Source: a bacterium
GTDB taxonomy: Bacteria > Myxococcota_A > Bradymonadia > UBA7976 > UBA1532
DNA: 56,411 nt
Direction of reading: 5' to 3'
NCBI GenBank assembly: GCA_041389985.1
Contig: JAWKQS010000026.1
Location: 1 to 56,411, forward strand
Part shown: piece after piece, positions 23,969 through 41,023 of the stretch
How positions within the stretch are numbered: position 1 is the stretch's first letter
Layout of the letters: each line of letters starts with the position of its first letter
The notes under the pieces: generated by a model
What the model saw: only the letters and a program-made list of their open reading frames with translations
Databases searched by the model: none
Told to the model about the DNA's origin: nothing
Program-made: the position numbers and the translations under genes

Positions 23969-24013
23969 GCAGAGGCACGCTGGGCAGAGGCGCGCTGGAC
24001 AGAGGCGCGCTGG
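23969..24013. repeat. Three perfect-to-near-perfect 15-bp tandem direct repeats (GCAGAGGCRCGCTGG) in the PGI/DUF3089 intergenic region.
   Basis: Sequence gcagaggcacgctgg gcagaggcgcgctgg acagaggcgcgctgg read directly from the sequence. Confidence 0.6.
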
Positions 24014-24024
24014 GCGGCGCAGGC

Positions 24025-25050
24025 TCAGGGGACGTACGGCCCGAGGCGGGCCTTGAAGTCTTCGACCATGGCGACGGGGTTGGGGTCGATGCCGCCGAGC
24101 GCCGCGTGGGCGCAGGTCACGAAGTCGAACAGGTAGAGCGCCGCGAAGGCTTTGACGAGGGGCGGCTCGCCGGCCGGCAGCGGGACGCGGATGACCGGGA
24201 CCCCGGCCGTTTCCAAGGTGGCTACCGTGGTTGCCACCCGGTGCTGCGCGCGGCTCGGCGCGTCGGGATCGTCGAGGACGACGGCCGAGAACGGGCCCGG
24301 CAGGCGGGTGTAGCCGACCATCTCGTTGTGGTTGAGCTCGGGCAGGGCGTAGCTGAAGGCCGGCGTCTTGGCGTTCTCGTTGAACTTGATCTTGGCGATC
24401 AGGGCCACCGGCTCAAAGGGGGCCGTGGCGTAGATCACCGGGATGCGGCCATCGAGGGCCTTCGCCAGGGCCAGGGCGCGATCTTCGACACCGTCCGTGT
24501 GCCGACGCATGCCGTCACCGATGGCAATCATGGCGGCGGCGCCGCCCGGCAAGAGCCCGGCATTCTCGAGGATGGCGGCCAGGGCCCCCAGAAAGAACCC
24601 GGTGGCCGCGCGCGGCTGAAAGCCGGGCGTAGGACGCTCCAGCTTCACGGCGGGCAGGCCGTCCCGCGCGGCGATGGCGGCCAGCTCGCCACCGGCGCTG
24701 AGGATGACGACGCGAGCGCCACGGGCGCGGGCATCGGCCAGCGCGGCGATGGTCTCCTCGGTGTTGCCGCTGTAGCTCGAGGCGATGACCAGCGTGTCGG
24801 CGCCGAGATCGGCGGCGCGCACGCTGTACTCGCGGGAGACGCTCAGATCCACGCCCAGGGGATCGCTGTACATCTTCAGCAGATCACCGGGGAAGGCGCT
24901 GCCGCCCATGCCGCAGAGGATGGCGCGGCGCACGCCCCGGGCCTCGACGCCGATCTGGCCGGCGAAGGCCACACCTTGAGCGAAGTGGTCGGGCACCCCC
25001 CGGACGGCGTCCAGCATCGTCCCCGACGTCCAAGTTGACATAATGCTCAT
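24025..25050 (-). CDS. Bifunctional phosphoglucose/phosphomannose isomerase (SIS-domain, archaeal-type PGI/PMI). The true start is probably the internal ATG near 25017 (MLDAV...).
   Basis: SYSGNTEET SIS motif. Length about 330 aa. The first 11 codons of the ORF use AT-ending codons atypical for this genome. Confidence 0.8.
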   Translation of the reverse strand: MSIMSTWTSGTMLDAVRGVPDHFAQGVAFAGQIGVEARGVRRAILCGMGGSAFPGDLLKMYSDPLGVDLSVSREYSVRAADLGADTLVIASSYSGNTEETIAALADARARGARVVILSAGGELAAIAARDGLPAVKLERPTPGFQPRAATGFFLGALAAILENAGLLPGGAAAMIAIGDGMRRHTDGVEDRALALAKALDGRIPVIYATAPFEPVALIAKIKFNENAKTPAFSYALPELNHNEMVGYTRLPGPFSAVVLDDPDAPSRAQHRVATTVATLETAGVPVIRVPLPAGEPPLVKAFAALYLFDFVTCAHAALGGIDPNPVAMVEDFKARLGPYVP

Positions 25051-25146: not shown

Positions 25147-26435
25147 TCAGCCGATGTCGATGAAGAGCTGGTTGATGACCTTCTGGAGCTCCTGCTGCTC
25201 GTCGCGCTCCAGCCACTCGCGCGCGGCGAACATCTCGAAGAACAGCAGCTCGTTGAGGGCCTGGGACAGGAAGCTCAGCCGGTTGTCCATCTGGGTGCCG
25301 GCCAGGTTCGCCAGCAGGCGCTCTCGGTCGAGCTTGCCGTCGATGAAGACCACCCCTGGAACAGCTCGACGAAGCCGTAGAACTGCAGGAACGTCTCCAG
25401 ACCCTTCTGGAGCGCCTGCTGCTGGCCGTGCCGGGCGATGGCCTGGTAGATGCGCTCGAACACCGTGTTGAAGGTGTCCACCATCGTGCCGGTTTCGGAG
25501 CCGACGCGATCGTCCTCCACCGACTCCGCCGCGGGCGGCTCGGTGTGCTCGGCCACCAGGTCGACGTGGCCGCTCTGCTTGAGGTGGAACAGGATCTTCA
25601 TGGTCTCGAAGTCGCCGTAGCGACACGCCCGGGAGACCTGCTCCACGGTCCGCGGCTTCTGGAGCATGCGCAGGACGAGCCGCTCGCGGGCGCCCAGCTC
25701 GCTCACATCCGCGTCGGGCCGCGCCACGAGCCGCATGCCATCCTCGGGGATGCGCTCGCGGAAGTACGCCATCTCGTCCATGCGCCGCAGCCCCTCCATG
25801 AGGAGCGACTGGGCGTTGAGGGCCAGCGGCCCTCCCCCGGGATCCCGCGGGTTGCGCGTCAGGTAGAAGTCGCCGTCCTTCATGAGCAGGATCGAGTAGA
25901 AGATCTCTTCGACCTGGCGACGGACGTTCAGATAGAGATCGGCCTGGGTGATCTGGCCGCGATCGAGCAGATGGTTGCCCAGGGGCCGCCGGATCCGACG
26001 GCACTCCTCGGCCGCCCGGTCCAGCACCTCACGCGGCAAAGCCCCGTAACGATAGAGGATTTCCCCCAGCCGATCCTCGGCGCGGTTCGACGTGGCGTTG
26101 CGGACCTGGCCGTCCTTGAACGTCAGCGTCTTGCGGGTGTCGCCCTGCACGAACAGCAGGTTGCCTGACTGCTGGGACGAGTGGACGAAGTTGATGACGT
26201 CCACCGTGGAGCCGAAGCCTGCCACATCGCCCTGCAGCACGATCGGGTGGCGCAGCTCTTCGAGGGGCGGCGTGCCCCCGACCCGCTGGAAGTGCAGCAG
26301 CGAGCTGTCCGACGGCAGGTGCGTGTACACCCCTGCGAGCGCCGCCAGCTCCTGTCGAAGCGCAGCCCCCACCGCGATCATCCGGCCGGCCTCGTCCACC
26401 TGGACGTAGCCCTTCACGTCGTCTCGACGACTCAT
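25147..26435 (-). CDS. DUF4388 (PATAN-domain) protein of about 429 aa. There is one frameshift at a g-run near 25355.
   Basis: N-terminal DUF4388 pattern (...IVLQGDVAGFGSTVDVINFV...NLLFVQGDTRKTLTFKDGQV...). ORFs 25275..26435 and 25147..26004 join at ccagggg|tgg. The ATGA start/stop overlap with the upstream gene is at 26432-26435. Confidence 0.65.
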
Positions 26436-27307
26436 CCCCTCTTCCGGAGACCGAAGAGGCCCTTCTTCTCGGCGGGCCTGCGCTGAAGGTGTCTTAGCTC
26501 GCTTGCCGCCTCAGCGCAATGCGGGTTGATCTCCAACGCGCGCTGCAGGGCGGCCATCGCCTTGTCGGTGTTGTCCATCAGGCGGTGGACGCGGCCCAGG
26601 TACAAGAACGGCTCCTCGCGGCCACCATCGCTTCCCATGGCCTGGGTGACCTCGGTCATGAGCTGGGCCGTCTTGGCGGCCATCGTCAGGGAGGGGCCGC
26701 GCGCCCACACGATGAGCAGCTCGGCGTAGGCCAGCCCGGCCCGGGCCACGGGGTCGTCCGGCGTCGCCTTCAGGGCCTCTTGGAACCGATCACGAGCCGC
26801 CTCGGGGTTGCCGGCCTTGATGATGGCGACAGCCTCCTTGACCAGCTTCTCGGCGCGGAACACCTGGCCCAGATCCGCGCCGCCCGCCTCGTTCACCACG
26901 CCGCCGGCCCGCGCCCGCATCACCTGCTCGGCGTCGTAGTCCTTGCGGGCCGCGGCGTCGCTGAGGACCTCGTTGGCGCGGTTGATGGCGATGAAGACCC
27001 GCTGCACCGCCTCCAGATCCGTCGGCGGGAGGTCGTACCGGGCGAACCGATCGGCGTGGAACTCGCGGGCAAGTGCCCGGAATGCATTGCGAATTTCCTC
27101 AGACGTCGCGGTCTTGGCGACCCCGAGGACCTCGTAGTGCGTCTTGGTCTCCAGGCCCTCGAGGCGCTGGTGGACCTCGCGGACGCGGGCCACGACGCGC
27201 TCGTCCGGGGCCTTCTTGGAGTTGGCGTCGGAAGGCGGCCGGCTGGGCGCCCGCGCTCCCACCTCGGTGCCGCGGGCGGGCGTCGCGGGCGCGACGGCGC
27301 GGCGCAC
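26432..27307 (-). CDS. J-domain (DnaJ-like) protein with TPR-like C-terminal repeats. It may be the C-terminal part of a longer DUF4388-J fusion (see next feature).
   Basis: J-domain HYEVLGVAKTATSEEIRNAFRALAREFHADR, then helical TPR-like repeats. Confidence 0.7.
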   Translation of the reverse strand: MRRAVAPATPARGTEVGARAPSRPPSDANSKKAPDERVVARVREVHQRLEGLETKTHYEVLGVAKTATSEEIRNAFRALAREFHADRFARYDLPPTDLEAVQRVFIAINRANEVLSDAAARKDYDAEQVMRARAGGVVNEAGGADLGQVFRAEKLVKEAVAIIKAGNPEAARDRFQEALKATPDDPVARAGLAYAELLIVWARGPSLTMAAKTAQLMTEVTQAMGSDGGREEPFLYLGRVHRLMDNTDKAMAALQRALEINPHCAEAASELRHLQRRPAEKKGLFGLRKRG

Positions 27308-28268
27308 CGGGGGCGCCGGGCGGCGGCGGCGGCGCGGCCCGCCGGACGCCGGACGTCGGCCCGGCCGGAGGCGGTGCGGCAGCGGGCGGAGCGCTCGTGC
27401 GGCTCACGAAGACCGGCGGCGCGGCGCCCGGCCCCACCGACGGGCGCCGGGTGGCCGTCCCCGCGACGTTGGCCGGCCGGGCCACGCGGCGGACCGACAC
27501 GGTGCTGGGTCGCGGCGGCTCCGACGCCTCTGGCGGTCGGCCCTCCTCCGGGGCCTTGCTCACGTTGGACTGAAACCGCGCCATGCCGGACAGCACCAGC
27601 ACCGCCACCTCGCGGGCCGCCAGATCGCGGTTGCCCCGCACCCGCGCGATGAGCTCGAAGGGCGTGGGCGCCTCGAGCATGGAGCGGGTGTTCGGCGTCG
27701 GGAAGAGCTGGTCGAAGCGCGCCGCGTGGTGGGTGGCGAAGTCGGTCGGGGCCACGAGCTGCCGCGCGTACTTCGCCACGAACTCGGTGGCCGCCGGCCC
27801 CTTGATGTAGCGCCCCGCGGCCTCGACGAGCAGATCCACCAGGTCGATGCCCTGGGCGCCCTGATCGGGGCGGATGACCTGGTCCTCGAACTGGTAGAGC
27901 CCGTCCGTCCAGCCAAAGGGCTCCAGGAGCAGGTGCCGCGCCACCCGGCGCTGGATGGCGGCCAGGCGCTTCGGGGCGACGAGGCCCATGCGCACCACCA
28001 TGAGATCGATGGGCGTCCGGGTGGTCTGGGCCTGCTGGCGCAGCTCCACCTCCTCCGTCGAGGAGATCAGGCCCTCGTCGACCAGCGCATAGACAAGGCC
28101 ATCCTGGCGCTGGTTGGAGGCCGTCCGCACGGGATAGCCGTTGGCGATCTCGGCCCGCTTGATCACGTTGCCGGCCTGGAGCGTCAGCACGCCGCTCATG
28201 CGACGCTCGAGAATGCTCCGGAACACCATGAAGAGCCGCAGGTGCTCCAGCTTTCCCCGGATCGCCAT
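27099..28268 (-). CDS. Second DUF4388 (PATAN) domain protein with a long Pro/Ala-rich linker. The 3' boundary is uncertain. The ORF overlaps the J-domain ORF by about 200 bp in another frame, so a single DUF4388-linker-J-TPR protein with one frameshift is plausible.
   Basis: N-terminus MAIRGKLEHLRLFMVFRSILERRMSGVLTLQAGNVIKRAEI.... The C-terminal third is pure P/A/R/G and overlaps the 27307 start. Confidence 0.5.
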   Translation of the reverse strand: MAIRGKLEHLRLFMVFRSILERRMSGVLTLQAGNVIKRAEIANGYPVRTASNQRQDGLVYALVDEGLISSTEEVELRQQAQTTRTPIDLMVVRMGLVAPKRLAAIQRRVARHLLLEPFGWTDGLYQFEDQVIRPDQGAQGIDLVDLLVEAAGRYIKGPAATEFVAKYARQLVAPTDFATHHAARFDQLFPTPNTRSMLEAPTPFELIARVRGNRDLAAREVAVLVLSGMARFQSNVSKAPEEGRPPEASEPPRPSTVSVRRVARPANVAGTATRRPSVGPGAAPPVFVSRTSAPPAAAPPPAGPTSGVRRAAPPPPPGAPGAPRRRARDARPRHRGGSAGAQPAAFRRQLQEGPGRARRGPRPRGPPAPRGPGDQDALRGPRGRQDRDV

Positions 28269-28375
28269 GAACGCCTCGTGCTGGTCGCAGGAAGGCCAGT
28301 GTACTGGTGTTGGGGGCCAGTGGCGAGGGGCTGCGAGCGCCTCCGGGCGGCGGGCGTCAACGCGCCGGGCGCCGG

Positions 28376-29539
28376 CTACTCCGAGGCGAGCGCCGCGAGG
28401 TGCCAGGCCGCCGCCTTGTGGAGGGCCACGACCTCACCGTGCAGCACCTGCTTCCAGAGCTGCTCGGCGCGCTCGGCGTCGCCCTCGATCTCGGCGATGA
28501 GCGCGTCGCGCTGCCAGGCCCACTCGGGCTCGTAGAAGTGCATGTTCAGGCGCGTCAAGCGGTTCTGGTCGCGCTCCCAGCCATCGATCATGGCGTCGAC
28601 GGCCTCGTCGTACCGGCCGGTCAGGTCGTGCAGGGCGGCCAGGCCCATGTAGCCCCAGGCCCCCTCCGGCTGGGTGTCGATGGCCTGGCGATAGAGATCA
28701 CCCGCGCCCCGGTAGGCCCCCTGGAGCTGGAGCAGCTCCGCCAGGTTCGAGAGCGCGACGCTCTCGCTGTACGGCCGGGCGGCGGGGGCGTCGAGGATGG
28801 CCTCGAAGAAGCCGGCCGCGCCGTCGAGATCGCGCCGCAGGTAGTGGATGTTGCCGAGGTTGTTCAGCGCCACGGGCTCGGCGGGATCGGCGGCCAGCAC
28901 CTCGCGGTACAGGTCCTCCGCGTCGTCGAGCTCCTGAGCCTGCAGGTGGACGTAGGCGAGCGCCAGCCGGCCCTCAAGGCGGTCGGGGGCGCGCTTCATC
29001 AGGTCGCGGGCCACCTGCTCGGCCGTGGTGAAGTCGCCGGCCAGGGTGGCCAGCTCGGACTGGTAGGCCAGGAGGGCCCGGACCCGATCTTCAGCGCCCG
29101 CGTCGCGATCGAGCACGCCGATCAGGCGATCCGCCGCCTCGGCCGCCGTGGCGAAGTCGCCCGACTCCACCGAGCCCCGCAGGACGCGCTCCAGCAAGAG
29201 GCGGTCGTCCCCTGCCCGCTTGAGCCCCTCGCGCCAGGCCGCCATGGCCGCCTCGGGCTGATCGAGGGTGAAGCGCAGGTCGCCGACCATGCGCCAGAGC
29301 GAGGGATCCTGGGGTTCCTGGCGGGTGGCCGCCTCGAAGGCCACGAGGGCCGCGGCCCGGTCGCCCTGCCGAAGCCGGGTGAAGCCTTCCACGCGGTGGG
29401 CCAGATCCGGCGCCTGCCGGACCATCTCGATGCGCTTCGCGGAGGGCTGCGCCCCCTTGAAGCCCGGCGCGGCCTGGGCCTGGCCGACCCAGAGTCCGCC
29501 CGCGGCCAGCGCGATGAGCCAGCGGTTCCTGCGTGCCAT
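28376..29539 (-). CDS. Secreted TPR-repeat protein.
   Basis: ATG at 29539 with a perfect RBS GAGGAGGA. Signal MARRNRWLIALAAGGLWVGQAQA. TPR-like repeats follow. The ORF-track start at 29824 is an over-extension. Confidence 0.75.
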   Translation of the reverse strand: MARRNRWLIALAAGGLWVGQAQAAPGFKGAQPSAKRIEMVRQAPDLAHRVEGFTRLRQGDRAAALVAFEAATRQEPQDPSLWRMVGDLRFTLDQPEAAMAAWREGLKRAGDDRLLLERVLRGSVESGDFATAAEAADRLIGVLDRDAGAEDRVRALLAYQSELATLAGDFTTAEQVARDLMKRAPDRLEGRLALAYVHLQAQELDDAEDLYREVLAADPAEPVALNNLGNIHYLRRDLDGAAGFFEAILDAPAARPYSESVALSNLAELLQLQGAYRGAGDLYRQAIDTQPEGAWGYMGLAALHDLTGRYDEAVDAMIDGWERDQNRLTRLNMHFYEPEWAWQRDALIAEIEGDAERAEQLWKQVLHGEVVALHKAAAWHLAALASE

Positions 29540-29726
29540 TCGACCGTCCTCCTCTGATGCCGTCTTGCAGTACACGCCGCGGCCGGCCGCGGGCGCACCG
29601 GAGTGAGACGAACCAGCCTGGCTGAAGTTCCATTCCCACCAGAAAAACTCAGATGGGCGTGGGCGACCGGCCAGCCAGAGGCCTGCCGTTGAAGGTCGCG
29701 CATCCTCCCGGCGCGGGCAACGACAC

Positions 29727-31261
29727 CTAGGGCAACCTGTTGTTCTCGCTGACTTTTTCTCCCACGTCGCGCCCATCGCCGGCCCCCGCAAGCTCGCCAC
29801 CGAACAGCGCCACGAGGGCCGCATCGAGGGCGGGGCGCAGGGATCGCGCTGCGCTGAAGGTCGCCGCGCTGCGGGCCCGCTGGCGGCGGTGGCGGCCGGC
29901 CAGCGTCAAGCGCGCCTCGGCGCCGGCGACTTGCAGCCAGACCGTCCCGGGCGGCAGCCGGGTGGGCGCGACCCGCGGGCTGAGGACGAGGGTGGGCGGT
30001 CCCGGGAGGGCCGCCTCGGCCGGCAGCAGCTCCAGGCGGACGCGGTGGTGGCGGATCTCGACGCCCAGGCTGGCCCGCAGCAGCACCTCCTCCTCACGGG
30101 CGATCCGCTCGTCGAGGGGCGAGCCGATGCGCCAGTGGAGCGACGAGCTGGCGGCGAGGGCGGAGAACGTCCGAGCGAGATCGGCGTGTAGCGCGAGGTA
30201 GAGGCCCTGGACCAGCACGAGGGTCTGGACCGGCAGCGCGGCCTCCTTCTGGCGCAGGCTCGCCAGATCGTCGATCACCACCGCGACGTGGCGGTGCGCG
30301 TCCAGCAGCGGGCTCTCGTCGCGGGTGTAGTAGAGCAGCTCGCCCACGACATAGCGGATGTCGAAGGCGTCGACCTCCCCGAGGCCCCCTGCCCCACGTA
30401 CGCGACCTCGGAGCGCACCAGGTTCTCGAAGCGCCCCTGGTGGCTGAGGGCGTCGAAGCCGCCGGCCGGGAAGCGGTCGGCCTCCTCGGCCTCGACCGGG
30501 ATCTCGCGGGCGGTGCGGCGGAGGCGCCCCGCCACGGTGGCCTGGATGGGGCCGAGGCGCGCGGCGACGCCATGGAGCTGCCGGAGGGCCAGGCGCTGGG
30601 ACTCGCTGTGCAACTCCGCGAAGTGATTGAGTTCCCACAGATCTTCGGGCCCGAAGAGGGGGCCCGGACCGAGGGCCTCGATGGCGGCGCCGTGGACGTC
30701 GGCGGCCAGGCTCAGCCACTCGGCGTCCTGGGGTGACCACTCGTCGAACCGGCTCGGCGTCTCGGCGACGACCTTCCCGCCCAGACTGCGCACATGGGCG
30801 GCGTTGCCGGTGAGCCGCAGCCGGGCCTGGAGCAGCCGATCGGAGAGCGCCAGCCGGATGGCATGGGCGACGAAGACCTCGCGGCGATCGGGCGGGACCC
30901 CGCCGAGGGCCACCTGGGCGGCGTCGACGCTGCCATCCAGCAGCCAGCGGCCCAGCACGCGCTCCTCATAGCCCAGGCGGGCGGCCTGCTCCTGGGGCGG
31001 CCAGTCCGCCAGGTCGCGGCCGGAGGCCAGCCGGAAGGCGTGGCCCTGCACGAGCAGCACGCCGAGGTCGTGGACCAGGGTCAGGGGGACGTGCTCGTCC
31101 CCTGCCCCCCAGATCTCGGCCAGCCAGCCGAGCGCGTCGGGCGCCGTGGCGTGCCAGTCCGCCGCCGCCCCCGACCAGTACAGGCTCGCCGCCAGCGCCG
31201 GGACGAGGCGGTCGCGCCCGAGGGGGTGCTCCTCGACCGCCGGCTCGTCGAGCTCAGCCAT
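29727..31261 (-). CDS. Hypothetical protein of about 511 aa encoded directly downstream of the RavA-like ATPase, where a ViaA/VWA-type partner would be expected. No confident domain call. There is one frameshift near 30390 at a g/c run.
   Basis: ORFs 30275..31261 (MAELDEPAVEEH...) and 29727..30740 join at ...VGQG|EVDAFDIRYVVGELLYYTRDE. The start overlaps the ATPase stop by 8 nt. Confidence 0.55.
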
Positions 31262-32246
31262 CGAGGCCCAGCAGGCTGTTGACCTTCTCCTCGACGATGG
31301 TCAACTCGGTGCGGCGATTGCCGATGTAGCGCAGGACCCGCAGGTCGCCGGCCTGGACGGCACCGCCGTGGTGGAGGAACGCGCGGGCGCGGATGAGCTT
31401 GTAGATCTTCACCGCCTTGCGGTCGCTCACGTACACCTGGTCTTCGGTCTCGAGCACCCGGACGATGCGGCGCAGCTCGGCGAAGACCGCGGGGGGGAAC
31501 CACCGGGCGTGGTCGCCGGCGCGCCCGGACGCCGCGAAGTGCAGGTCCAGGTAGCGCTTGAGCTTGAGGAAGTCCGTGAAGCTCGCCGGGCCATCGGCCC
31601 ACGGGCGCTGGCCCAGGTTGCGGTTGGCCTCCGTGCGCATCCCGGCCTCGATGAGGGCGTCGAAGTGGCGCTCCTTGACGGGGCGCGTCTCGACCTTGAG
31701 GACGAAGCGATCCGAGAGCGCCACCAGCTCGCTCTGCTCGGGGATGTCATTGGTGGCGGCGAAGAGCAGCCGCAGGTTCACGGGCTCGGGGGCGCCGTCC
31801 TGGTAGAACTTCCGCTCGTTGACGATGGTGAGGAGCGTGTTGAGGATGGCGCTGTTGCTCTTGAAGATCTCGTCGAGGAACACCACCCGCGCCTCGGGCA
31901 GCATGCCGCGCGTGCGCCGACGAAAGCGCCCCTCCTTCAGCAGCGCGATGTCGATGGGCCCAAGGATTTCGCTGGGTTCGGTGAACTTCGTGAGCATGTA
32001 CTCGAAGTAGTCCTCGGCCCCGAGGCCCAGGCTCTCGACGAACTTCAGCACCAGATCGCTCTTGGCGGTGCCCGGTGGACCGGCGAACAGGAGGGGCTCC
32101 TGGGTCGCCGCCGCCAGCAGCATCAGGTCGGCCTCTGCCTCTCGCCCGACGAAGAACCCCGCCAGGAACCGGCCATGCTGGAGGATCCGGTGGCGGACGT
32201 CGTCGATCTCTTCGTCCAGGGCCTCGAAGGTCCAGTCCTCGGCCAT
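31254..32246 (-). CDS. MoxR-family AAA+ ATPase, RavA-like.
   Basis: Walker A LLFAGPPGTAKS. Walker B VVFLDEIFK. The region is alignable by eye to E. coli RavA (FEYLMTRF..., ILNTLLT.INER.F...RLL.AA.N). The start ATG overlaps the upstream stop (TGATG). The first 230 aa of ORF 31254..32936 are an out-of-frame extension. Confidence 0.85.
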   Translation of the reverse strand: MAEDWTFEALDEEIDDVRHRILQHGRFLAGFFVGREAEADLMLLAAATQEPLLFAGPPGTAKSDLVLKFVESLGLGAEDYFEYMLTKFTEPSEILGPIDIALLKEGRFRRRTRGMLPEARVVFLDEIFKSNSAILNTLLTIVNERKFYQDGAPEPVNLRLLFAATNDIPEQSELVALSDRFVLKVETRPVKERHFDALIEAGMRTEANRNLGQRPWADGPASFTDFLKLKRYLDLHFAASGRAGDHARWFPPAVFAELRRIVRVLETEDQVYVSDRKAVKIYKLIRARAFLHHGGAVQAGDLRVLRYIGNRRTELTIVEEKVNSLLGLDG

Positions 32247-35200
32247 CAGCGCGCGCTCCTCCAGTCCGACACGATGCGGCGCCGCACCGCCTGCTCCTCC
32301 GCCTCCAGCCACAGCCGAAGCCGCCCGCCGCCATGGGCGCGGGTGTCGGCGAGGGCGTCCACGACGCGCTCGACCAGCAGGAACCGGTGCAGGCGGAAGT
32401 ACCGCTGCGTGGTGAAGTTGTCTCGAAAAACCTCTAGAGATTCCAATGCCTTGCCCCCCGCGATCTCGCGCGCCGAGACCGGCCACGCGCGCAGGGTGCC
32501 AAACAGCACGCTCGCCCCCTCGAACCGGGCGATGGGGTCGAGGTGCGGGCCGTAGAGCGACTCCTCGATCTCGGCCAGGGTGCGCTCGGCGGCCGGGTGA
32601 TCCCCCAGCAGGCGGAAGCCGTCGGCGACGAAGACCGCCACCTTCGTCGCCTCGCGGTGGCCGCGGCGGGCGACGTCGCGCAGCGAGAGCAGGAAGCGCT
32701 CGGCCTCGCCGCCCAGGCCGATGCGCCGCAGGGCCGCCATGGCCGGCTCGACCGCGCGCAGGATCTCGGCGATGGACTCCATCTCGGGGAGCTGCTGCAC
32801 GAAGAGCTCGATGAGGCCGTGGACGCTGGCCTCGTCCTCCAGCAGCGCCGCCGCCCGCAGGATGGAGCCGATGGCGGCGGCGCGGTGGCCGGGGATGTGC
32901 AGCCGCTCCAGCGTGGTGAAGGCGGCGTCCCGGCACTCGGCGATGAGGCCGTCGCGGCCCGTGCCGAGGGCCAGAGTCAAGGCGCCGTCCAGCAGATCCG
33001 CCACCAGGTAGTCATGGCCGAAGCCCGGGTCGCGCAGGGCCGCGGGGATGCCCTCGGGGGTCTCGGCCAGGTCTTCGAGGCGGGCGAGGACGCGGCTGTC
33101 CACCCGGCTCGGCGCGGCAGTGCCCTCGGCCAGCCAGACCGACCGCTTGCGCGCGAAGTCGACGGCGGCGCGCTCCCGGGCGCTGAGGCCCTGCACCGCG
33201 TCGGCCACCGCGCGCTGCCAGAGCGTCTCGGCGTCGGCCGAGCCCAGGCACTCGAGGCGGGCGAGGTACAGCCGCAGCAGCGCGCGCCCCGGCGGGTCGA
33301 ACAGGGGCCGCAGCTCCTCGACGTCATGGGCCAGGCTGCGGGCGCGGGCGGCGTCCCCGGCCTGGGCGAAGCCCACCGCGAAGATGGCCCGGTACAGGGT
33401 GGCCTGGAGGTCGAGGTCGTCCAGATCCCCCTCCACCCGCACCCACGCCGCCGCCAGGGCCGCGCGCTGGAGGTCGGAGGCGCTGCCCGGCACAGTGCCG
33501 TCGTCGCCACCCAGGGCCAGGCCGAGCCGGACGAAGCGCGGGGCGTCGAAGGCCTCCCGCAGGCCGTCCATGTTGAGGGCCCCCAGCAGCACCTCCCGGG
33601 CGCGGGTCAGGCCCAGCAGATCGCCCGTGGCGCCGTGCAGGCTGCGCAGCACCAGCCAGGCGAGGCGCCGCGACGCGGTGCAGTGTTGCTGCGCAAACCC
33701 CTGGATCAAAAGGGGTTGCAGGCCATCCATCAGGGCGTCTCGGCCGACGTCGGCGGTGGCAGCGGCGCCCAGGAGCGCCAGCGCGAGGGGCGCGGGCCGC
33801 TCGGCCGTCGCGGTCGTGAGCAGGAAGTCGGGCAGGCCCGCCGCCGAGACGCCGAGGCTGCGCGCGCGGGTGTCGACCAGGGCTGCCAGCGCGGGCATCG
33901 CGGCCGGGAGGTCGGCGGCGTGGAAGGCGGCGGCCTCCAGGCACAGGCCCGCATCATCGGGCTCGCCGAGCTGGTCGAGCAGCCGGCCGAGCTGCAGCCA
34001 GGCCGCAGAATCGGTCAGGCCGCCGGCGGTCACCCGCGCTTGCAGAGGCTCGGCGGCCAGGCGCCAGGCGCGGATCTGATCGGCCTCCGATCCCGCCTCG
34101 GCGACGGGCTCGGCCGCGATCGCCGCAGGCCGGGGTCGACGGGCGGGCGGCGTGCGGACCGGAGGTCGGGGCCGCACCGCCCGCTCCACGGGCCGGATGG
34201 AGCGATCGAGCTGGATGGCGGGCAGCACGAAGACCGCCTCCTCGAGCAGCGCATCCAGGGTGGCCCGGTTGTCGAGGGCCAGGTAGTCGACCAGCTCGCG
34301 GAGGGGCGCCTCGGGAGCGGGGCCGATGCGGAGGATGCGCGGACCGTCGCGGGTGGCCTCGACCAGCACCACCCCGTTCTCGGGGGGCTGGAGCACCGCG
34401 CGCAGGGCCTCCAGGCGCATCGGGGGCATCAGGCGCATCCCGGCCGGCACGAAGATGCGCTCCGCCCCCGCCACCCGGGTGTAGCCGCCGGTGCCCAGCA
34501 GGCCCGAGAGGCGGTCGGCGAGGCCGTCGTCCTCGCTGCCCGCCCGCAGCCGCAGGACGTAGCGGACGCCCGCGTCGCCCTGCATGCGGGCGAGCGTCAC
34601 GGCCCCCAGCCCCTCCAGGGGGGTGGCGTCCAGCAGGGGCAGCAGCGCCGGCAGCTCGTCCGCGCGGATGACCCAGAGGCTGGGCGGACGCGGCCGATCC
34701 AGCTCCAGCCGCAGGTGCACCGTGAAGCGCAGGGGCTCGCCCTCGGCGGCGCGGAGGAGGGCGACCGGGGCCGGCAAGGCGGCGTCGGCGAAATCGAGGA
34801 GGGGCCGCTGATCCCAGACTGCCGGCACGCCCTGCCAGCGGCCGTCGGCGTCGACCAGCGCCCCCGTCCCGGCGGCCGCGAGGCGCGCCGCGGCCGCCGC
34901 CGCGAGGGGGTGCTGCCAGCTCCAGGCCACCCACAGGTTCGAGTCCCGGTAGCGCGCGTAGGCCGTCACCGGCTCGCCGCCATCCCGGGCGCGGAGCAGC
35001 AGGTACAGGGGCGGGTGGGCCAGGCGCAGGGCCAGGACGGGGCCCGCCGGTCCCGCCCACTGCGTCAGCGTGGCGTCCGGGCGGGCCAGCCGCAGCAGCC
35101 GCTCGACGGTGCGGGTGGCCGCTGGGTCGTCGCCGGGCACGATGAAGCAGCCCTCCGCCGGCACCTCGTCATGGCCCGCCGCGAGCGGTCGCAGCGCCTC

Positions 35201-35461
35201 CAGCAAGTGGGTCGACGCCCGCACCTCGCCGGGGAGCCCCGCCTCGGGGGGGAGCTGGACCAGGGGCACGCCGGCGGCGATCGCCTCACTCGCAAAGTCG
35301 AAAAGCTGTTCCGAAACAACGAGATAGGAGCCATCTTCGAAGCCGCTGATCGTCTGCCAGGCGCCCTCGATGAGCGCAGGCCGGCCGCCCATGAGGGCGT
35401 CGAGGTGCGCGAGATCCGCCGGCCCCCCGGCCAGGCGCAGGCCCCAGACCGGCGGCTTCAC
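32246..35461 (-). CDS. Large (1071 aa) cytoplasmic protein: an N-terminal region of about 450 aa of unknown fold, then an alpha-helical repeat (TPR/HEAT-like) scaffold. Function unknown.
   Basis: Single clean ORF with consistent high GC3. The GTG start sits inside the GTGA overlap with the upstream small gene. No signal peptide or TM helix. Confidence 0.7.
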   Translation of the reverse strand: MKPPVWGLRLAGGPADLAHLDALMGGRPALIEGAWQTISGFEDGSYLVVSEQLFDFASEAIAAGVPLVQLPPEAGLPGEVRASTHLLEALRPLAAGHDEVPAEGCFIVPGDDPAATRTVERLLRLARPDATLTQWAGPAGPVLALRLAHPPLYLLLRARDGGEPVTAYARYRDSNLWVAWSWQHPLAAAAAARLAAAGTGALVDADGRWQGVPAVWDQRPLLDFADAALPAPVALLRAAEGEPLRFTVHLRLELDRPRPPSLWVIRADELPALLPLLDATPLEGLGAVTLARMQGDAGVRYVLRLRAGSEDDGLADRLSGLLGTGGYTRVAGAERIFVPAGMRLMPPMRLEALRAVLQPPENGVVLVEATRDGPRILRIGPAPEAPLRELVDYLALDNRATLDALLEEAVFVLPAIQLDRSIRPVERAVRPRPPVRTPPARRPRPAAIAAEPVAEAGSEADQIRAWRLAAEPLQARVTAGGLTDSAAWLQLGRLLDQLGEPDDAGLCLEAAAFHAADLPAAMPALAALVDTRARSLGVSAAGLPDFLLTTATAERPAPLALALLGAAATADVGRDALMDGLQPLLIQGFAQQHCTASRRLAWLVLRSLHGATGDLLGLTRAREVLLGALNMDGLREAFDAPRFVRLGLALGGDDGTVPGSASDLQRAALAAAWVRVEGDLDDLDLQATLYRAIFAVGFAQAGDAARARSLAHDVEELRPLFDPPGRALLRLYLARLECLGSADAETLWQRAVADAVQGLSARERAAVDFARKRSVWLAEGTAAPSRVDSRVLARLEDLAETPEGIPAALRDPGFGHDYLVADLLDGALTLALGTGRDGLIAECRDAAFTTLERLHIPGHRAAAIGSILRAAALLEDEASVHGLIELFVQQLPEMESIAEILRAVEPAMAALRRIGLGGEAERFLLSLRDVARRGHREATKVAVFVADGFRLLGDHPAAERTLAEIEESLYGPHLDPIARFEGASVLFGTLRAWPVSAREIAGGKALESLEVFRDNFTTQRYFRLHRFLLVERVVDALADTRAHGGGRLRLWLEAEEQAVRRRIVSDWRSAR

Positions 35462-35718
35462 CCCTCGCCCACCTTCTGCGCCTCCCGCCCGCCTTCGAGC
35501 GTCCCCACCGGCGTGGCGGCGCCCGCCCGGCCGTCGCGCTCCACCTCGATGGCGTCGGCGAGCGACGCGCGCGGGACGCCCAGCAGCGACTCCACCAGCG
35601 CCCGGTGATCGCGCTCGTGCTCATGGGGCAGCGCGTCATCCTCTGACTCGTAGTGGATGACCAGCACCCGCTCGCCCGTGCGCGGATCGTGGCGCAGCTT
35701 CAGCGTCACCTCAGCCAT
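35458..35718 (-). CDS. Small (86 aa) acidic/His-rich protein wedged between the FtsH-like gene and the 1071-aa gene. Function unknown.
   Basis: MAEVTLKLRHDPRTGERVLVIHYESEDDALPHEHERDHR.... It overlaps neighbours by 8 and 4 nt, so it is operon-embedded. Confidence 0.45.
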   Translation of the reverse strand: MAEVTLKLRHDPRTGERVLVIHYESEDDALPHEHERDHRALVESLLGVPRASLADAIEVERDGRAGAATPVGTLEGGREAQKVGEG

Positions 35719-37798
35719 GATCGCCTCCGAGGGCCCCCCGCAGGGCCGGTCCTTCGAGCACCTTGTGGGTCAGGAGCAGGTCGACCAGCGCCGTGTGCAG
35801 GGCCTGGTGCTGCTGGATGAGGCCGCGGGCCCGGGCGAGCTCCTCGGCGATGAGGGCGTCGATGGCGGCGTCGATGCGGCCGCGGCGGGCGTCGCTCTCA
35901 GGCTCGCCCTCCAGGCTGGCTCGCACGCCCGCGGCCGACATGCCGTAGTCCACCACCATCGAGCGCGCCATGCCGGCGACCTGCTTGAGATCGGCGAACG
36001 CCCCGATGGAGACGTCCCCCAGGACCACCTGCTCGGCCACGTAGCCGCCCAGCCCCACGCAGATCTCGGCGCGCATCTCGGCGCTCGTCACGGCGTAGGG
36101 CCGCGCCCGGGCCGCCCGCAGCACATACCCCAGCGCCCCCTCGAGGTCGGGGGAGATGGAGATGCGCTCGGGGGGCGTGGCCCCCGGCAGCAAGGTCGCG
36201 AGCAGCGCGTGGCCGGCCTCGTGGACGGCGATCACGTGCTCCTCCTGGCTCGACAGCACGACCGGCCGCCGCGACCGGCGCTCCAGGGCCCGATCTACGT
36301 CGTCCGGCGTGAACACCCCGTCGCCGGTGCGCAGGGCCTGGCGCTTCAGCGCGCGGCAGACGGCGTAGAGGTGGTCGCCGGTGTAGGGCAGCCCCTGGCT
36401 GCGATCGGCCAGGCCGTCCGTGCGGCGGACGAGGTGGTCCACCAGCGCGGGGGCCAGGGACAGGCCGAGCTTGCGGTCGTAGATCTCGATGATCGCGCGG
36501 CGATCCGCCGGCTCGGGCGCCGGAATCTCGATCAGGAACTCGAAGCGACCGGGGCGCAGCAGGGCCCCATCCACGGACTCCAGGAAGTTCGTGGTGCCCA
36601 CCACGAAGACCATCTCGTTGCGCCGGAAGCCGTCCATCTCGGTGAGGAGCTGGTTGACCATGGAGTGCTCGACGCCCGAGCCGGAGTAGGTGCCGCGCCG
36701 CTGGGCGAAGGCGTCCAGCTCGTCGAAGACGATGACCGAGGGGGCCGCCGCCCGCGCCTGGCGGAAGATCCGCCGCAGGTTCTGCTCGCTCTCGCCCACC
36801 CACTTGCTCTTGAGCTCCGGGCCGCTCACCACCAGGACGGTAGCGTCCAGGGCCGTGGCCAGGGCCTTGGCGAACCAGGTCTTCCCGGTGCCCGGCGGGC
36901 CATGGAAGATGATGCCGCGGGGCAGCAGGGCCTCGAGCTGCTCGATGTCGTCCACCGCCTCCAGCGCGTCGCGGCGGCGCACCAGGTCGATGATCTCTTC
37001 CCGCAGGCGCTTCTTCACCTCGGGGTAGCCGCCCACGTCCCGGTCCAGATCGACCTGCGGGAGATCGACCCCGTCGGAGGTGGTCTGCTGGCGGATGAGG
37101 CGGTAGATCGAGCTGGCCCGGTCCTGGCCCGGCATGGCCTCGCGCCGCAGGGCGAGCTGGCCCAGGAGCTTGCGGCACCGCACCGGGTTCTGCCCGGAGA
37201 CGTACTTGTAGAGGGCGAAGGGATCAAACGCATCTGCCCGGATTGACAGTGCTTCTCGGCGCGTCACCAGGCGCGGGAGGGCGTCGCGGGGGATGCCGGT
37301 GACGGCGCGCACGGCGCCGAAGACCTGCTCGATCACGCCCGGCAGCGGGAAGCTCGGATCCCGGAAGCCGAGGAGCAGGGCCTCGGGGTTCTCGTAGAGC
37401 AGCGGGATGACCTCGCGGGCCTCGAAGGTCAGGCCGGTGTGGGTGGTCGCGAGGACGTCCAGATGGGGCAGCACCAGCAGCAGCCGCTCCACCGAGCCCC
37501 GGATGGCGTCGGTCAGGTGGGCCAGGGTGTTCTGCAGGCCCGTGCGCCCCGCCTCGTTCTCGTTGCGGGGGCGGCCGTCGATGAGCTGGATGCGCGGCGC
37601 GTCGGGCACCTTGCGCAGGCGGTTGCGCACGGCGAGGTAGAGGTGGAGCGACAGCTCCTTGTCACACTCGACCAGGACGCTGGTGCCCTGCCGCAGGCGG
37701 CCCTCGATGAAGGCGATGTCGTCGGCGCAGGCCGCCTCCACCGCCTGATCGATGGTGACGTCGGTGGGCAGCGACTCGAGGGGGAGCGTGCGGCGCAC
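35711..37798 (-). CDS. FtsH-like AAA+ ATPase fused to an M41 zinc peptidase, but with no transmembrane anchor. It has a roughly 300-aa N-terminal region of unknown function.
   Basis: Walker A GIIFHGPPGTGKT. Walker B VIVFDELDA. Sensor / Arg finger TNFLESVDGALLRPGRFE. HEXXH is HEAGHALL. No hydrophobic helices in the N-terminal 300 aa. Confidence 0.85.
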   Translation of the reverse strand: MRRTLPLESLPTDVTIDQAVEAACADDIAFIEGRLRQGTSVLVECDKELSLHLYLAVRNRLRKVPDAPRIQLIDGRPRNENEAGRTGLQNTLAHLTDAIRGSVERLLLVLPHLDVLATTHTGLTFEAREVIPLLYENPEALLLGFRDPSFPLPGVIEQVFGAVRAVTGIPRDALPRLVTRREALSIRADAFDPFALYKYVSGQNPVRCRKLLGQLALRREAMPGQDRASSIYRLIRQQTTSDGVDLPQVDLDRDVGGYPEVKKRLREEIIDLVRRRDALEAVDDIEQLEALLPRGIIFHGPPGTGKTWFAKALATALDATVLVVSGPELKSKWVGESEQNLRRIFRQARAAAPSVIVFDELDAFAQRRGTYSGSGVEHSMVNQLLTEMDGFRRNEMVFVVGTTNFLESVDGALLRPGRFEFLIEIPAPEPADRRAIIEIYDRKLGLSLAPALVDHLVRRTDGLADRSQGLPYTGDHLYAVCRALKRQALRTGDGVFTPDDVDRALERRSRRPVVLSSQEEHVIAVHEAGHALLATLLPGATPPERISISPDLEGALGYVLRAARARPYAVTSAEMRAEICVGLGGYVAEQVVLGDVSIGAFADLKQVAGMARSMVVDYGMSAAGVRASLEGEPESDARRGRIDAAIDALIAEELARARGLIQQHQALHTALVDLLLTHKVLEGPALRGALGGDHG

Positions 37799-37802
37799 CG
37801 GG

Positions 37803-38345
37803 TCAGACCTTGACCTTGATGGTCAGCTCCAGGCCGCCAGCCTCGTCGGTGCGCTCGTCGATGCTCGTCACCTCGCCCAGGCGGGCCGCCTTCTCTTTCA
37901 GGGCCCGGACGTAGATGCGCTGCACGTGATCGGCGAGGCTCCCCTGCAGGTCGGCCTCCGCCCGGTCGAGCCGCTGGGCCAGCTCCGCGGCCAGCCGCTC
38001 ACGGGCCGCCACCTCGTTGCGCGACAGGGCCTGCTGGGCCTCGACCTGGGTGTCGGCGGTGGCCTGGACCGCCCGGGTCCCCTCGATGCGCAGCTGGACG
38101 CTGCGGCCGTCGGCGGCGAGGCGCGCCTCTGCCCCCCCGGGGAGTTGCCGGACCAGGCCGCCGTCCGCGCTGGGGGACCACCCGTCGTCGCAGAGCGCCT
38201 CACGCAGCAGGGCCACCATCTCGGCCTCGGGCAAGATGGGCAGCAGCTCGACACCCAGCTCCAGGCGATCGGAGGCCGCCACGGTGCCCCGCTCGGTGAC
38301 CCGCGTCACCGCCTCACGCCAGCGAATCCGGTAGCCCCGGCTCAT
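37803..38345 (-). CDS. Hypothetical protein of 180 aa, whose stop overlaps the FtsH-like gene start.
   Basis: Clean ORF MSRGYRIRWREAVTRV...LELTIKVKV*. Confidence 0.5.
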   Translation of the reverse strand: MSRGYRIRWREAVTRVTERGTVAASDRLELGVELLPILPEAEMVALLREALCDDGWSPSADGGLVRQLPGGAEARLAADGRSVQLRIEGTRAVQATADTQVEAQQALSRNEVAARERLAAELAQRLDRAEADLQGSLADHVQRIYVRALKEKAARLGEVTSIDERTDEAGGLELTIKVKV

Positions 38346-38355
38346 GGTGCCCCCC

Positions 38356-39752
38356 TCAGCCGATCACCCCGGCGGCCGTCCGGCGGGCGGCCGCGAGGCT
38401 CGCCGTGACGTCGGGGGGGTGGTGTGCGGCGTAGTCTGCCAGATAGAGCTGCGCCTCGGCATGCTGATCGTCGCCGTAGCGCACCTGCCCCAGGGCGTCG
38501 CGCAGCTCGGCGAGCCGCTCGCCCAGCCCGTAGAGGAGCACCGCGGCGTCCCGCCCCTGGTCCCGTGGGGTGCGCTGGGCCGCGAAGCGCTCCCGCAGGC
38601 GCCCCGGGGGGACGAGCTCCAGCAGCTCCGCCGTGACCACGAGCGCGGAGGTGGCCAGATCCAGGCGCCGCGCCTTCTCCAGGGCCCGCAGCCACTGGTG
38701 CAGCACCGTGGCGACGGAGGCGACGGCGCTGGCCGCCTCGGGCTCCCCCGCCAGCCCCCGCAGGCGGCGACGCCAGGCGGCGACCAGGGGCGCCTGCCAG
38801 CACTCGATCAGCCGCACCGCCCGCGGGGCGAGCAGCCGCGCCAGATCGGCGGGGGTCACGGGCGCCAGGTCCTCCAGCGCCAGCAGGGGCGAGGCAGCCC
38901 GCAGGCGGCTCTGCACCTCGTCGTCGGCGCCGGCCAGCCCCTGGGCCAGCAGGCCGGGCGCGATCTGGCGCACGAAGAGCCAGTCCCCGGGCTCGGTGTC
39001 GCTCACCTGCAGCCAGCGCCGCAGGATCTTGCGCCGCTCCCGCTCCCCCGACCGCTGCACCGCCGGCACCTCGATGACCCCCTGCGTCCACAGCCGGGAG
39101 GTGCCGCTGCCGTAGCTGAGCTGGAAGTCGCCCACGAGGGCGGCATCCCACAGGCGGCCCCGCACCCGCTGGCCGTCGCGCAGGACGGTCCGGGGCAGGT
39201 GGCCGCCGGCCCGCAGCAGAGCGGCGAGGCCCGTGCGGGCGATGAGCCGGCCGCCCGCCTCCAGGACCGACAGGCTGGGCCGCCGCTCCTGCTCCAGGGC
39301 AGCCTGCCCCTCCGCCGTGGAGGTGAACCGCTGGCCGCTCAGCAGCGCCCCCAGGAAGGCCAGGCGCTCGGCGTCGGCGGGGCCGGGCCGGCGAGCGTCG
39401 CCAAGGGCAACCCTCCGACTTCACTGAGGATTCCGGGACCGGGCTCGCCGAGCAGCCGCGTCTGCTGGCCGGCGGGGAAGAGCTCCACGGTGGGCGCCGC
39501 CGCGGCCGGGGCGTGCCCGCGTGCCACCGGCAGGCTCCCGGCCGCGGCCTGGAGCGCCGCCACGGCCGCCTCGTCGGCGGGCAGGAGGACCACCAGGCCA
39601 TCGGCCCCGAGCCGCCGCGCCCGACCCACGAGGGCCGCCGGATCCATGACCTCTCCACCGGATGCCGCGAGCTGGATGGCGAGCTGGCGGCCGCCCCCCG
39701 CCGCCCGGGTGAGCGGGAAGATCGCCCGCACGCGCACGGTCGCCTCGGTCAA
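38356..39752 (-). CDS. Hypothetical protein of about 465 aa. The TTG start overlaps the stop of the upstream beta-propeller gene (TTGA). At least one frameshift lies near 39330-39340.
   Basis: N-terminus MTEATVRVRAIFPLTRAAGGGRQLAIQLAAS... (tail of ORF 39339..40703). Continuation in ORF 38356..39165. Confidence 0.4.
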
Positions 39753-40884
39753 GGGGGGCCCCCGTCGGCGGGGATCCCCGCGTCCGGGGCGTCCTCCGGG
39801 CAGACCACCTCGAAGACCTGCACCGCGTCGTCGGTGGCCACCGCGAACCGTCGGCCCTCGGCGGCCACGTGGTGGGCGGGGGTGGCGGTCGACGCGGCCA
39901 GCCAGACCGTCGGGGCCTCGGGCGCCTGCAGATCCACGATCAGCGCGCCGTTGCCGGCGACGACCACCCCCAGGTCGCGGCCCAGGAGCGCCACGTCGGC
40001 GACGGGCTCGGCCGGCAGGAAGGTGGCGAGGCGGGTCGGCCCTCCGGGCAGCAGATCGATGATCCCCGCGCCGGCCGGGCCCTCCGCGAGCAGCACCCGG
40101 TCGCTCTGCAGGGCCACCCCCTCCGCCCGCCCGGCCGTCTCCAGCAGCACGTCGGCGCGGCGGACGGGCCCCGCGTCGGTGAGATCCACGAGGGCCAGCC
40201 CGGCCAGGCCATCGGCCACGGCCAGCAGCGTCCCCTGGCGAGCCAGGGCGGAGGCGCGGCCCGGCGTGTCGGCGCGCCCCGTGCGGGAGGGCGCCGACCA
40301 GTCGCCCGGCTGCACCACCTCGATGCCCTTGGCGTAGGAGGCCACGAACACGCGCCCGCCCTGGAAGACCACGCCCCGCACCTCGTCCGAGGCCGCCCAG
40401 GCCACCCCGACGGGGGCGCCGCTGGCCCGATCCAGCGCCCGCACGACGCCGGCCTGCTCCCCGATCACGATGCGGTCGGTGGCCACGGCCAGGTGGTCGA
40501 CGCTGCCCTCTTCCCCCTCCAGGTGGCGCTCGAGGCGCAGGGACGGCGGCAGAGGAAACGCCGAAAGATCCCAGATTTCGAGACCTTCGAGTCCCTTGGC
40601 GATGTAGAGCTCGCCGTCCACGAGGGCGACGGCGTGGGGGCCGACCGCGACGGGGATGGGATCGCCGGCCACCAGCTCGGCGGCGGGGCGCCCGAAGACG
40701 CAACGGCCCGCGGCGCAGGTGGCCGTCGTGCAGGGGTCGTCATCCTGGCAGTCGAGGGCGCCGTCGCAGCCCAGGCCGGCGTCGGTGAGGGCCGCGTCCG
40801 CGGCCGCGTCGCGCACGTCGGCTGCCCCGTCGTCCTGGCAGGCGACGGCGGCGGGGAGCGCGAGGGCGATCAGGAGGAGGGCGG
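39749..40884 (-). CDS. Lipoprotein with LVIVD-type beta-propeller repeats.
   Basis: Signal (M)RRPALLLIALALPAAVAC from a TTG start. Repeated ...GxxVxVAxxxxGLxIxDL... units. The first about 220 aa of ORF 39749..41623 are a shadow of the plus-strand outer-membrane protein gene. Confidence 0.6.
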
Positions 40885-41023
40885 GGCGTCTCAAGGTGCG
40901 GGGAGTATAGCCAGGGGCTCTGGTGGACGGAACCGGGTGGACGGAACCGATCGGACCGTTCGAAGAGGTGTTCGGCTTCGGTCGGGGACGCAGTATACTC
41001 CCGCGGTCCTGAGCGGAGGAAGC
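40885..41023. promoter_or_regulatory. Divergent intergenic region that should hold promoters for the minus-strand operon and the plus-strand outer-membrane protein cluster. It contains a tandem direct repeat GGTGGACGGAACCG x2 (40912-40939), bracketed by an 11-bp inverted repeat GGGGAGTATAG / CAGTATACTCCC (about 40889 and about 40990).
   Basis: Repeats read directly from the sequence. The region is flanked by two divergent starts. Confidence 0.4.

Follow-up and report, generated by a model that had tools for sequence, protein, structure and literature searches.

The window analysed here is a stretch of 56,411 nucleotides (nt) of contig JAWKQS010000026.1, and a long run of genes on its minus strand, between 40894 and 25147, is the subject of this report. 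The run opens with genes of the FtsH-type MoxR-vWA "ternary system", which was predicted computationally as a "conflict" system by Kaur, Burroughs, Iyer and Aravind (eLife 2020; PMC7159879) and is represented in Pfam by families PF19996-PF20005 and PF20030. The guanine-cytosine (GC) content of the window is about 74%, which gives rise to long spurious open reading frames (ORFs) in all frames. Genes were called from a codon-position GC plot together with a codon log-likelihood model, which was trained on the window's own long ORFs and selects each start independently of the neighbouring genes. Both methods agreed that minus-strand coding is continuous from about 40894 to beyond 25147. The run 40894-25147 holds 12 real genes, which bears out an earlier note on this DNA that had described at least 12 consecutive minus-strand genes. 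The comparison set consisted of 80 related loci (81 sequences when the window is included). The intact reference relative was L001 (JACKDP010000006.1), a Myxococcales metagenome-assembled genome whose MoxR protein is 92% identical to that of the window.

The first gene, geneA (39749-40894), encodes a lipoprotein of 381 amino acids (aa) with a TTG start. Its signal peptide, RRPALLLIALALPAAVAC, includes a cysteine in the translation. About seven LVIVD-like repeats with a spacing of about 42 aa were observed in the protein, and at least five of them have the form G-h-x-h-h-D. No Pfam match to geneA was obtained even at E <= 5. Among the 81 sequences compared, the gene was found only in the window and in L001, where the TTG stands at the homologous position.

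The second gene (38356-39752, TTG start) encodes an fvmX6-domain protein (PF20004) of about 465 aa when repaired. It is followed by a gene for an fvmX5-domain protein of 180 aa (37803-38345, ATG start; PF20003, E = 1.6e-29), and the 10-nt gap ahead of this gene contains a Shine-Dalgarno-like GGGGGG run. The fourth gene (35711-37798, GTG start) encodes an FtsH-like AAA+ metalloprotease of 695 aa, in which the Pfam domains AAA and Peptidase_M41 occupy residues 304-693. The protein carries the Walker A motif GPPGTGKT, the sequence DELD and the zinc motif HEAGH. By eye, no transmembrane segment was visible in its translation, and its first ~250 residues gave no Pfam match. In the published system, an inactive AAA+ copy stands ahead of the active FtsH-type AAA+ domain of the third component (PMC7159879). 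The fifth gene (35458-35718, ATG start) encodes the fvmX3-analog protein of 86 aa (PF20002).

The sixth gene (32246-35461, GTG start) encodes a protein of 1071 aa that belongs to the fvmX7 family. The protein itself had no match in Pfam (E <= 5 included), NCBIfam, PADLOC or PDB sequences, and it was assigned through homologues of 53% and 36% identity, which carry PF20005 (fvmX7). Its AlphaFold2 model, with a mean predicted local distance difference test (pLDDT) score of 82.8, shows an alpha/beta region at residues 1-400, a disordered linker and a C-terminal alpha-solenoid of 600 residues. A Foldseek search with this model returned only generic TPR/HEAT alpha-solenoids, none of them at E <= 0.001. 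The predicted alpha-solenoid fits a scaffold role.

The last two genes of the eight-gene core encode a MoxR-type AAA+ ATPase of 330 aa (31254-32246, ATG start; Pfam bpMoxR, E = 1.6e-58, and AAA_5) and an ivWA protein (29727-31261) with an N-terminal helical domain and a divergent vWA domain. The two ivWA domains (PF19996 and PF19997) are split over two ORFs as sequenced and matched with E = 1.9e-43 for ivWA-helical_N and E = 2.6e-23 for ivWA.

A GXXXTAKS P-loop variant was described for the MoxR proteins of ternary systems (PMC7159879), and the P-loop of the window's MoxR, GPPGTAKS, fits it. A simpler subtype of the system has a vWA protein with a large N-terminal helical domain (PMC7159879), as does the window's ivWA protein. 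The window also has the FtsH-like AAA+ protease, direct matches to the fvmX3-analog, fvmX5 and fvmX6 families and, via homologues, fvmX7; a myxobacterial host fits the reported deltaproteobacterial distribution. The locus thus adds a member to this known, predicted system and shows some variant features. The earlier note had spoken of an "FtsH/RavA module" and had not recognised this system, nor that several of its ORFs are frameshift fragments. Our literature search returned no experimental study of the FtsH ternary system.

RavA-ViaA of E. coli is similar in that an AAA+ MoxR ATPase is encoded beside a vWA partner. However, the NCBIfam RavA match of the window's MoxR is only partial (E = 3e-43, 148 bits, against a cut-off of 681 bits), and its 330 aa compare with 498 positions of the RavA profile. 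The vWA partner in the window is of the divergent ivWA family, and the operon has six more genes.

Junction geometry and start codons

Junction starts were set by homology to L001 and by the likelihood model, and a negative distance denotes an overlap. geneA and fvmX6 overlap by 4 nt (-4) at TTGA 39752-39749, where TTG 39752 lies over TGA 39751-39749. The next two junctions, fvmX6/fvmX5 and fvmX5/FtsH, are gaps of +10 nt and +4 nt, respectively. FtsH/fvmX3-analog is an overlap of -8 nt at ATGGCTGA (35718-35711), and fvmX3-analog/fvmX7 is an overlap of -4 nt at GTGA 35461-35458, with GTG 35461 over TGA 35460-35458. The fvmX7/MoxR overlap is -1 nt at TGATG 32248-32244, where TGA 32248-32246 meets ATG 32246-32244, and MoxR/ivWA is again -8 nt at ATGGCTGA (31261-31254). 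One octamer therefore makes both 8-nt overlaps of the operon. As a separate observation, the two proteins encoded behind this octamer, the fvmX3-analog and ivWA, both start with Met-Ala-Glu.

Beyond the core, the distances are +187 nt for ivWA/TPR, +107 nt for TPR/DUF4388b and -164 nt as sequenced for DUF4388b/DnaJ (+84 in L001). DnaJ/DUF4388a is an overlap of -4 nt at ATGA 26435-26432, with ATG 26435 over TGA 26434-26432, and DUF4388a/PGI is a gap of +96 nt. The TTGA, GTGA, TGATG and ATGA motifs quoted in the earlier note are exact in position. Its statement that every junction is either an overlap of 1-8 nt or a gap of at most 10 nt holds for 8 of the 11 junctions, namely seven within the eight-gene core and DnaJ-TPR/DUF4388a, and fails at ivWA/TPR, TPR/DUF4388b and DUF4388b/DnaJ. 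All six overlaps of the chain are of the type ATGA, GTGA or TTGA (-4), TGATG (-1) or ATGNNTGA (-8), and most of them have a Shine-Dalgarno-like run inside the upstream gene. TTG or GTG occurs in only two of these six overlaps, so the use of such starts is not "systematic", as had been proposed.

In 2.66 million gene pairs of 1,695 prokaryotic species, -4 is by far the commonest gene distance, followed by -1 and -8 (PMC10666635; PMC6728339). Distances of -8 to +6 nt are taken as a signature of termination-reinitiation (PMC10666635; PMC6728339), and a spacer of about 20 nt almost abolishes coupling (PMC10666635). Six of the seven core junctions (-4, +4, -8, -4, -1 and -8) and DnaJ/DUF4388a (-4) fall within this range; fvmX6/fvmX5 lies at +10. 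Gene overlaps are also enriched among subunit genes of heteromeric complexes (PMC10666635; PMC6728339). The translational coupling suggested in the earlier note would fit the published experiments for -8 to +6 nt (PMC6728339; PMC10666635). The chain shares the -4, -1 and -8 overlap classes with the cases of Huber et al. (2019, 2023). Those cases were measured, and coupling in the present ones is predicted from sequence geometry. TTG as a re-initiation codon, as at geneA/fvmX6, is rarer than ATG or GTG. A further difference from the cases of Huber et al. is that one coupled pair here combines an exported lipoprotein with a protein on which no signal peptide was noted.

Tight packing of the core was also seen in the related loci. 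fvmX7 overlaps MoxR in 47 of 59 loci, with 13 nt as the most frequent length, and the octamer ATGGCTGA stands at the FtsH/fvmX3-analog junction in 16 of 29 loci, one planctomycete included. Cultivable carriers of the operon are represented by Nannocystis exedens DSM 71 (L024) and N. punicea FL3 (L026). The fvmX5/FtsH junctions (n = 20) comprise 14 gaps of 0-20 nt and three overlaps of 4 nt.

Comparison with orthologous loci indicated that the start/stop overlaps are real and are not mis-called starts. All 18 fvmX7 orthologues inspected have ATG or GTG in the start column, directly followed by a conserved G-L-R-L-x-G. The TTG of fvmX6 corresponds to an ATG in L001, where the junction reads ATGA. 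FtsH begins with GTG in 15 of 20 orthologues; L001 has TTG. TTG 40894 (geneA) and the plus-strand TTG 41614 each lead straight into a lipoprotein signal peptide, and both codons are conserved in L001. The likelihood caller agreed on TTG 40894, TTG 39752, GTG 37798, GTG 35461, ATG 32246, ATG 31261 and ATG 29539, and it also picked the plus-strand TTG 41614. Judged by these comparisons, the TTG and GTG starts are genuine, and they are unremarkable for a genome of 74% GC. The earlier note had drawn a lesson for gene callers, which is not needed, as the gene calls on record for L081 (JAWKQU010000052.1), a near-identical contig retrieved by exact-protein look-up, already use the same overlapping starts.

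Base composition has to be considered in judging these motifs. Third codon positions of the window are 54% C, 39.5% G, 4.6% T and 1.9% A. A non-C base ahead of a TGA stop gives an NTG codon; this composition predicts it for 46% of the TGA stops, and 36% were observed, so a GTGA alone proves nothing. ATGA is enriched in the window. Among other co-directional gene pairs in the window, about 20% lie within 10 nt of each other. Against this background, a run of seven successive junctions this tight is not random (about 1e-5), and it has the normal appearance of an operon.

Downstream genes and interrupted reading frames

The spacer between ivWA and the next gene (29540-29726) is non-coding, 187 nt long and has a strong AGGAGGA ahead of ATG 29539. 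It holds a conserved block, TTTTTCTGGTGGGAATGGAACTTC...TGGTTCGTCTCA, of about 45 nt (29600-29650), which is almost perfectly conserved between the window and L001, while the rest of the spacer has diverged. Inside this block is a GGAAC-N16-CGTC motif like those of extracytoplasmic function (ECF) sigma factors, at 29631-29607 and about 60 nt upstream of the TPR start. Folding of the spacer gave no outstanding structure (z = +1.0), and neither an Rfam family nor a tRNA was found anywhere in the window. The idea that this spacer holds a structured RNA or a terminator was set aside on these results and those of the consensus scans.

The gene behind the spacer (28376-29539, ATG start) encodes a secreted TPR protein of 387 aa with matches to Pfam TPR families. 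Its Sec signal peptide ends in AQA/AP and has no lipobox cysteine. The start corresponds by homology to ATG 12600 of L001. There, the TPR ORF opens only past the ivWA stop, and this ATG, its earliest start codon, lies 123 nt after ivWA, so the TPR start cannot shift upstream. The next gene encodes the DUF4388/PATAN protein b (DUF4388b; 27099-28268, ATG start; Pfam PF14332) and runs 164 nt into the following DnaJ gene as sequenced. This DnaJ gene (26432-27262) encodes a J-domain and TPR protein (Pfam DnaJ and TPR), and its GTG start was assigned by homology to L001. A second DUF4388/PATAN protein, DUF4388a (25147-26435, ATG start; PF14332), ends the run. Downstream of the chain, from 25050, is a gene for a SIS/PGI (glucose-6-phosphate isomerase-like) protein. 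DUF4388a is 96-98% identical to its L001 orthologue, compared with 65-92% for the system proteins, and the DNA of the region is about 83% identical. This far stronger conservation of DUF4388a points to a housekeeping gene under a different constraint.

Several reading frames of the region are interrupted as sequenced. Between window positions 21245-42271 and L081, the identity is 99.07%, with 81 indel events in 21 kb. Most of these indels span 1-2 nt within runs of G or C, and 49 of the 81 are concentrated in 39395-42162. Both sequences look like noisy long-read assemblies, and single-base features of the window are therefore unreliable. By comparison with L001, at least five genes are frameshifted within or beside the region. 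In fvmX6, an apparent 1-nt deletion lies near 39408-39420; tblastn places the window's fvmX6 in two frames with a 1-nt gap relative to L001, and L081 has an intact ORF of 465 aa. In ivWA, an apparent +2 frameshift near 30377-30395 produces the two ORFs, and the same break is present in L081; in L001 the gene is a single ORF of 496 aa. DUF4388a has an apparent 1-nt deletion at about 25353-25356; it matches L001 with 96% identity up to the break and, in the shifted frame, with 98.6% beyond it. In DUF4388b, the window lacks the stop of L001, which aligns near 27375, and L081 has the same 389-aa ORF. The SIS/PGI gene (about 23939-25050, minus strand) has a frameshift relative to L001 near 24170-24210. 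By tblastn, protein identity to L001 stays high past every frameshift. Outside the region, the histidine-kinase gene on the plus strand (47912-50124) is broken into at least three frames, with GAF domains in the frame 47912-49807, HATPase_c in the frame 49363-50124 and a third frame between them.

The gene breaks are read as assembly errors, and real mutation may still account for the three of them that are common to the window and L081. Programmed frameshifting or real pseudogenes were considered for the split ivWA, fvmX6 and DUF4388a genes and set aside as less likely, because two assemblies of 99% identity differ by 81 homopolymer-type indels and protein conservation continues past the breaks.

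Alternative explanations of the gene array

We consider that the region comprises an eight-gene FtsH ternary-system operon (40894-29727) followed by separate neighbouring genes on the same strand (29539-25147), and that frameshifts in a noisy assembly account for several of the apparent extra ORFs and odd junctions; to this reading as a whole we give a probability of about 80%. In the core, a ribosome that ends one cistron would re-initiate at once on the next (termination-reinitiation), and the Shine-Dalgarno-like run inside the upstream gene would aid re-initiation at most junctions. The subunits of a large cytoplasmic AAA+ assembly would in this way be produced together and in proportion. 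In this assembly, MoxR, ivWA, the FtsH-like protease and the small fvmX proteins would come together with the fvmX7 alpha-solenoid as scaffold. Given 187 and 107 nt of spacer, the downstream genes need de novo initiation. TPR, DUF4388b, DnaJ-TPR and DUF4388a would then probably have at least one promoter of their own, and among them only DnaJ-TPR/DUF4388a would be overlap-coupled, by its ATGA.

Several points weigh against this reading. Co-transcription and coupling are deduced from the geometry of the junctions, and the Shine-Dalgarno-like sequences of FtsH and ivWA are weak. The first product, geneA, is exported and fvmX6 has no signal peptide noted, so coupling does not always mean a shared complex; the fixed stoichiometry claimed in the earlier note is accordingly doubtful for this pair. 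Simple consensus scans gave no sigma-70-like promoter, and no minus-strand terminator in any spacer, and the boundary at 29727 therefore rests on spacer length, the conserved motif and synteny. The GGAAC-N16-CGTC motif alone is not significant (2 found versus 1.67 expected); it was rejected as statistical evidence for this reason and kept only as a conserved block. In L046 (10960-15978), DUF4388 follows ivWA after 7 nt with no TPR gene between, and the order DUF4388, DnaJ-TPR, DUF4388 is as in the window. In L002 (4226-6373), DUF4388 follows ivWA after 35 nt, again with no TPR gene between, and the contig ends within DUF4388. Finally, the three frameshifts common to the window and L081 could be real.

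The order of genes in L046 and L002 hints at a recurrent link between the FtsH system and the DUF4388/DnaJ module, and it gives some support to the view that translation is chained through all 16 kb, from the lipoprotein gene to DUF4388a, with products that would be made in fixed ratios and act jointly. All 12 genes on one strand and the lack of a terminator in the scanned spacers also favour this view. We nevertheless regard it as unlikely. Spacers of 187 and 107 nt are far above the ~20 nt at which coupling is lost (PMC10666635), and the longer one combines a conserved promoter-like block with a strong Shine-Dalgarno sequence of its own. DUF4388 was found downstream of ivWA in only 4 of 81 sequences (the window, L001, L046 and L002), and the identity of DUF4388a to L001 differs from that of the system proteins. 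TPR, DUF4388, DnaJ and PGI are all present downstream of the system in only 2 of 81 sequences (the window and L001), and TPR and PGI are absent there in the other 78 loci. The earlier note had taken the overlaps to tie the "FtsH/RavA module" to the TPR and PATAN/J-domain genes; the two spacers separate them.

It would be very improbable, in our judgement, that the overlaps, GTGA and TTGA especially, are chance NTGA sequences with the true starts further downstream and no special coupling. The 46% of TGA stops expected after a non-C base would allow it, and in-frame alternatives exist downstream, such as ATG 35392 for fvmX7. This is opposed by the ATG/GTG column and the conserved residues at the fvmX7 start, by the ATG of L001 in place of the fvmX6 TTG, by the signal peptides that begin directly at TTG 40894 and TTG 41614, and by the identical choices of the likelihood caller and the L081 gene calls. 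A different view takes the frameshifts of ivWA and of both DUF4388 genes as real, and perhaps those of fvmX6 and PGI as well; the system would then be decaying to pseudogenes and some of the odd junctions would be biological. Three breaks are common to the window and the independently deposited L081, which speaks for real mutations, but both assemblies are full of 1-2-nt indels in G/C runs and the break sites lie in or beside such G or C runs. Identity to L001 is undiminished after the breaks (98.6% in DUF4388a), the fvmX6 break is not in L081, and the PGI-like gene and the histidine kinase elsewhere in the window are frameshifted as well. We therefore hold real decay to be quite unlikely.

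As a finding on overlaps, the array is of little weight. Overlaps of 4, 1 and 8 nt, GTGA included, are standard operon packing for multi-subunit machines, and gene callers handle them. The conserved packing of the eight-gene core does provide a concrete hypothesis about the proteins that would form a joint assembly. Membership of the PATAN/J-domain genes in the FtsH system should not be taken for granted, and short, fused or overlapping ORFs in the window need checking against relatives before they are interpreted.

Variant features and flanking genes

In the system of Kaur et al., an effector is encoded alongside, either NEFF1 or a radical SAM enzyme together with a peptide. The window differs from that system in the absence of a radical SAM effector gene, in its LVIVD-like lipoprotein as the first cistron and in an extra N-terminal part of about 115 aa in fvmX6. 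Five other Myxococcota loci that were gene-called with an intact fvmX6 each have a 4-nt overlap between fvmX6 and a gene for about 170-200 aa. This overlapping gene was a radical SAM gene in all three loci scanned (L015 1851-2462, L021 1745-2338 and L045 1982-2491), in agreement with the effector of Kaur et al. With the L021 and L015 proteins as tblastn queries, no radical SAM gene was found in the window or in L001; both have the LVIVD-like lipoprotein in its place and the longer fvmX6. We put forward only tentatively that the window and L001 represent an undescribed variant of the FtsH ternary system, in which an exported lipoprotein of the LVIVD beta-propeller type replaces the radical SAM/peptide effector and is overlap-coupled to the extended fvmX6, and in which the system is tied functionally to a module of PATAN, DnaJ-TPR and PATAN. 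Such a variant would link the predicted AAA+ conflict machine with the cell envelope as well as with Hsp70 co-chaperone and PATAN signalling.

The FtsH gene itself is not always present beside the others. Among the 52 loci with at least 9 kb of upstream sequence, 26 have no FtsH upstream, and 17 of these 26 retain fvmX7, MoxR and ivWA. Loci with this trio and no FtsH within 9-10 kb upstream include L003, L005, L007, L009, L025 and L032. The genes just upstream of the trio are on the opposite strand in L009, L025 and L032, and apparently in L003 too. It may be the fvmX7-MoxR-ivWA trio that forms the conserved core of the FtsH ternary system; the FtsH module may be optional or encoded elsewhere.

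Upstream of geneA, a divergent intergenic region (40895-41023) separates it from a plus-strand gene for a secreted protein and contains the palindrome AGTATACT. A second TATACT box lies 9 nt upstream of the geneA TTG, and the palindrome, this box and the TTG are conserved in L001. These elements could belong to a nearly leaderless mRNA with a TTG start, or they could form an operator.

On the plus strand, the secreted-protein gene (41024-41617) is followed by a gene for a TPR lipoprotein (41614-43050) with a TTG start. Its TTGA (41614-41617) lies over the TGA of the secreted-protein gene. This junction, which the earlier note had pointed out, is real and is kept in L001 along with the LLGGC lipobox, and the lipoprotein signal peptide follows directly. 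The similar junction proposed at about 49838, between the histidine kinase and a lipoprotein, has no stop/start overlap as sequenced: GTG 49840 is in the HATPase_c frame, and TGA 49841-49843 is out of frame. A run of six C at about 49816-49821 is a possible error site just ahead of the putative lipoprotein start GTG 49840, and a 1-nt error in this run could restore the junction.

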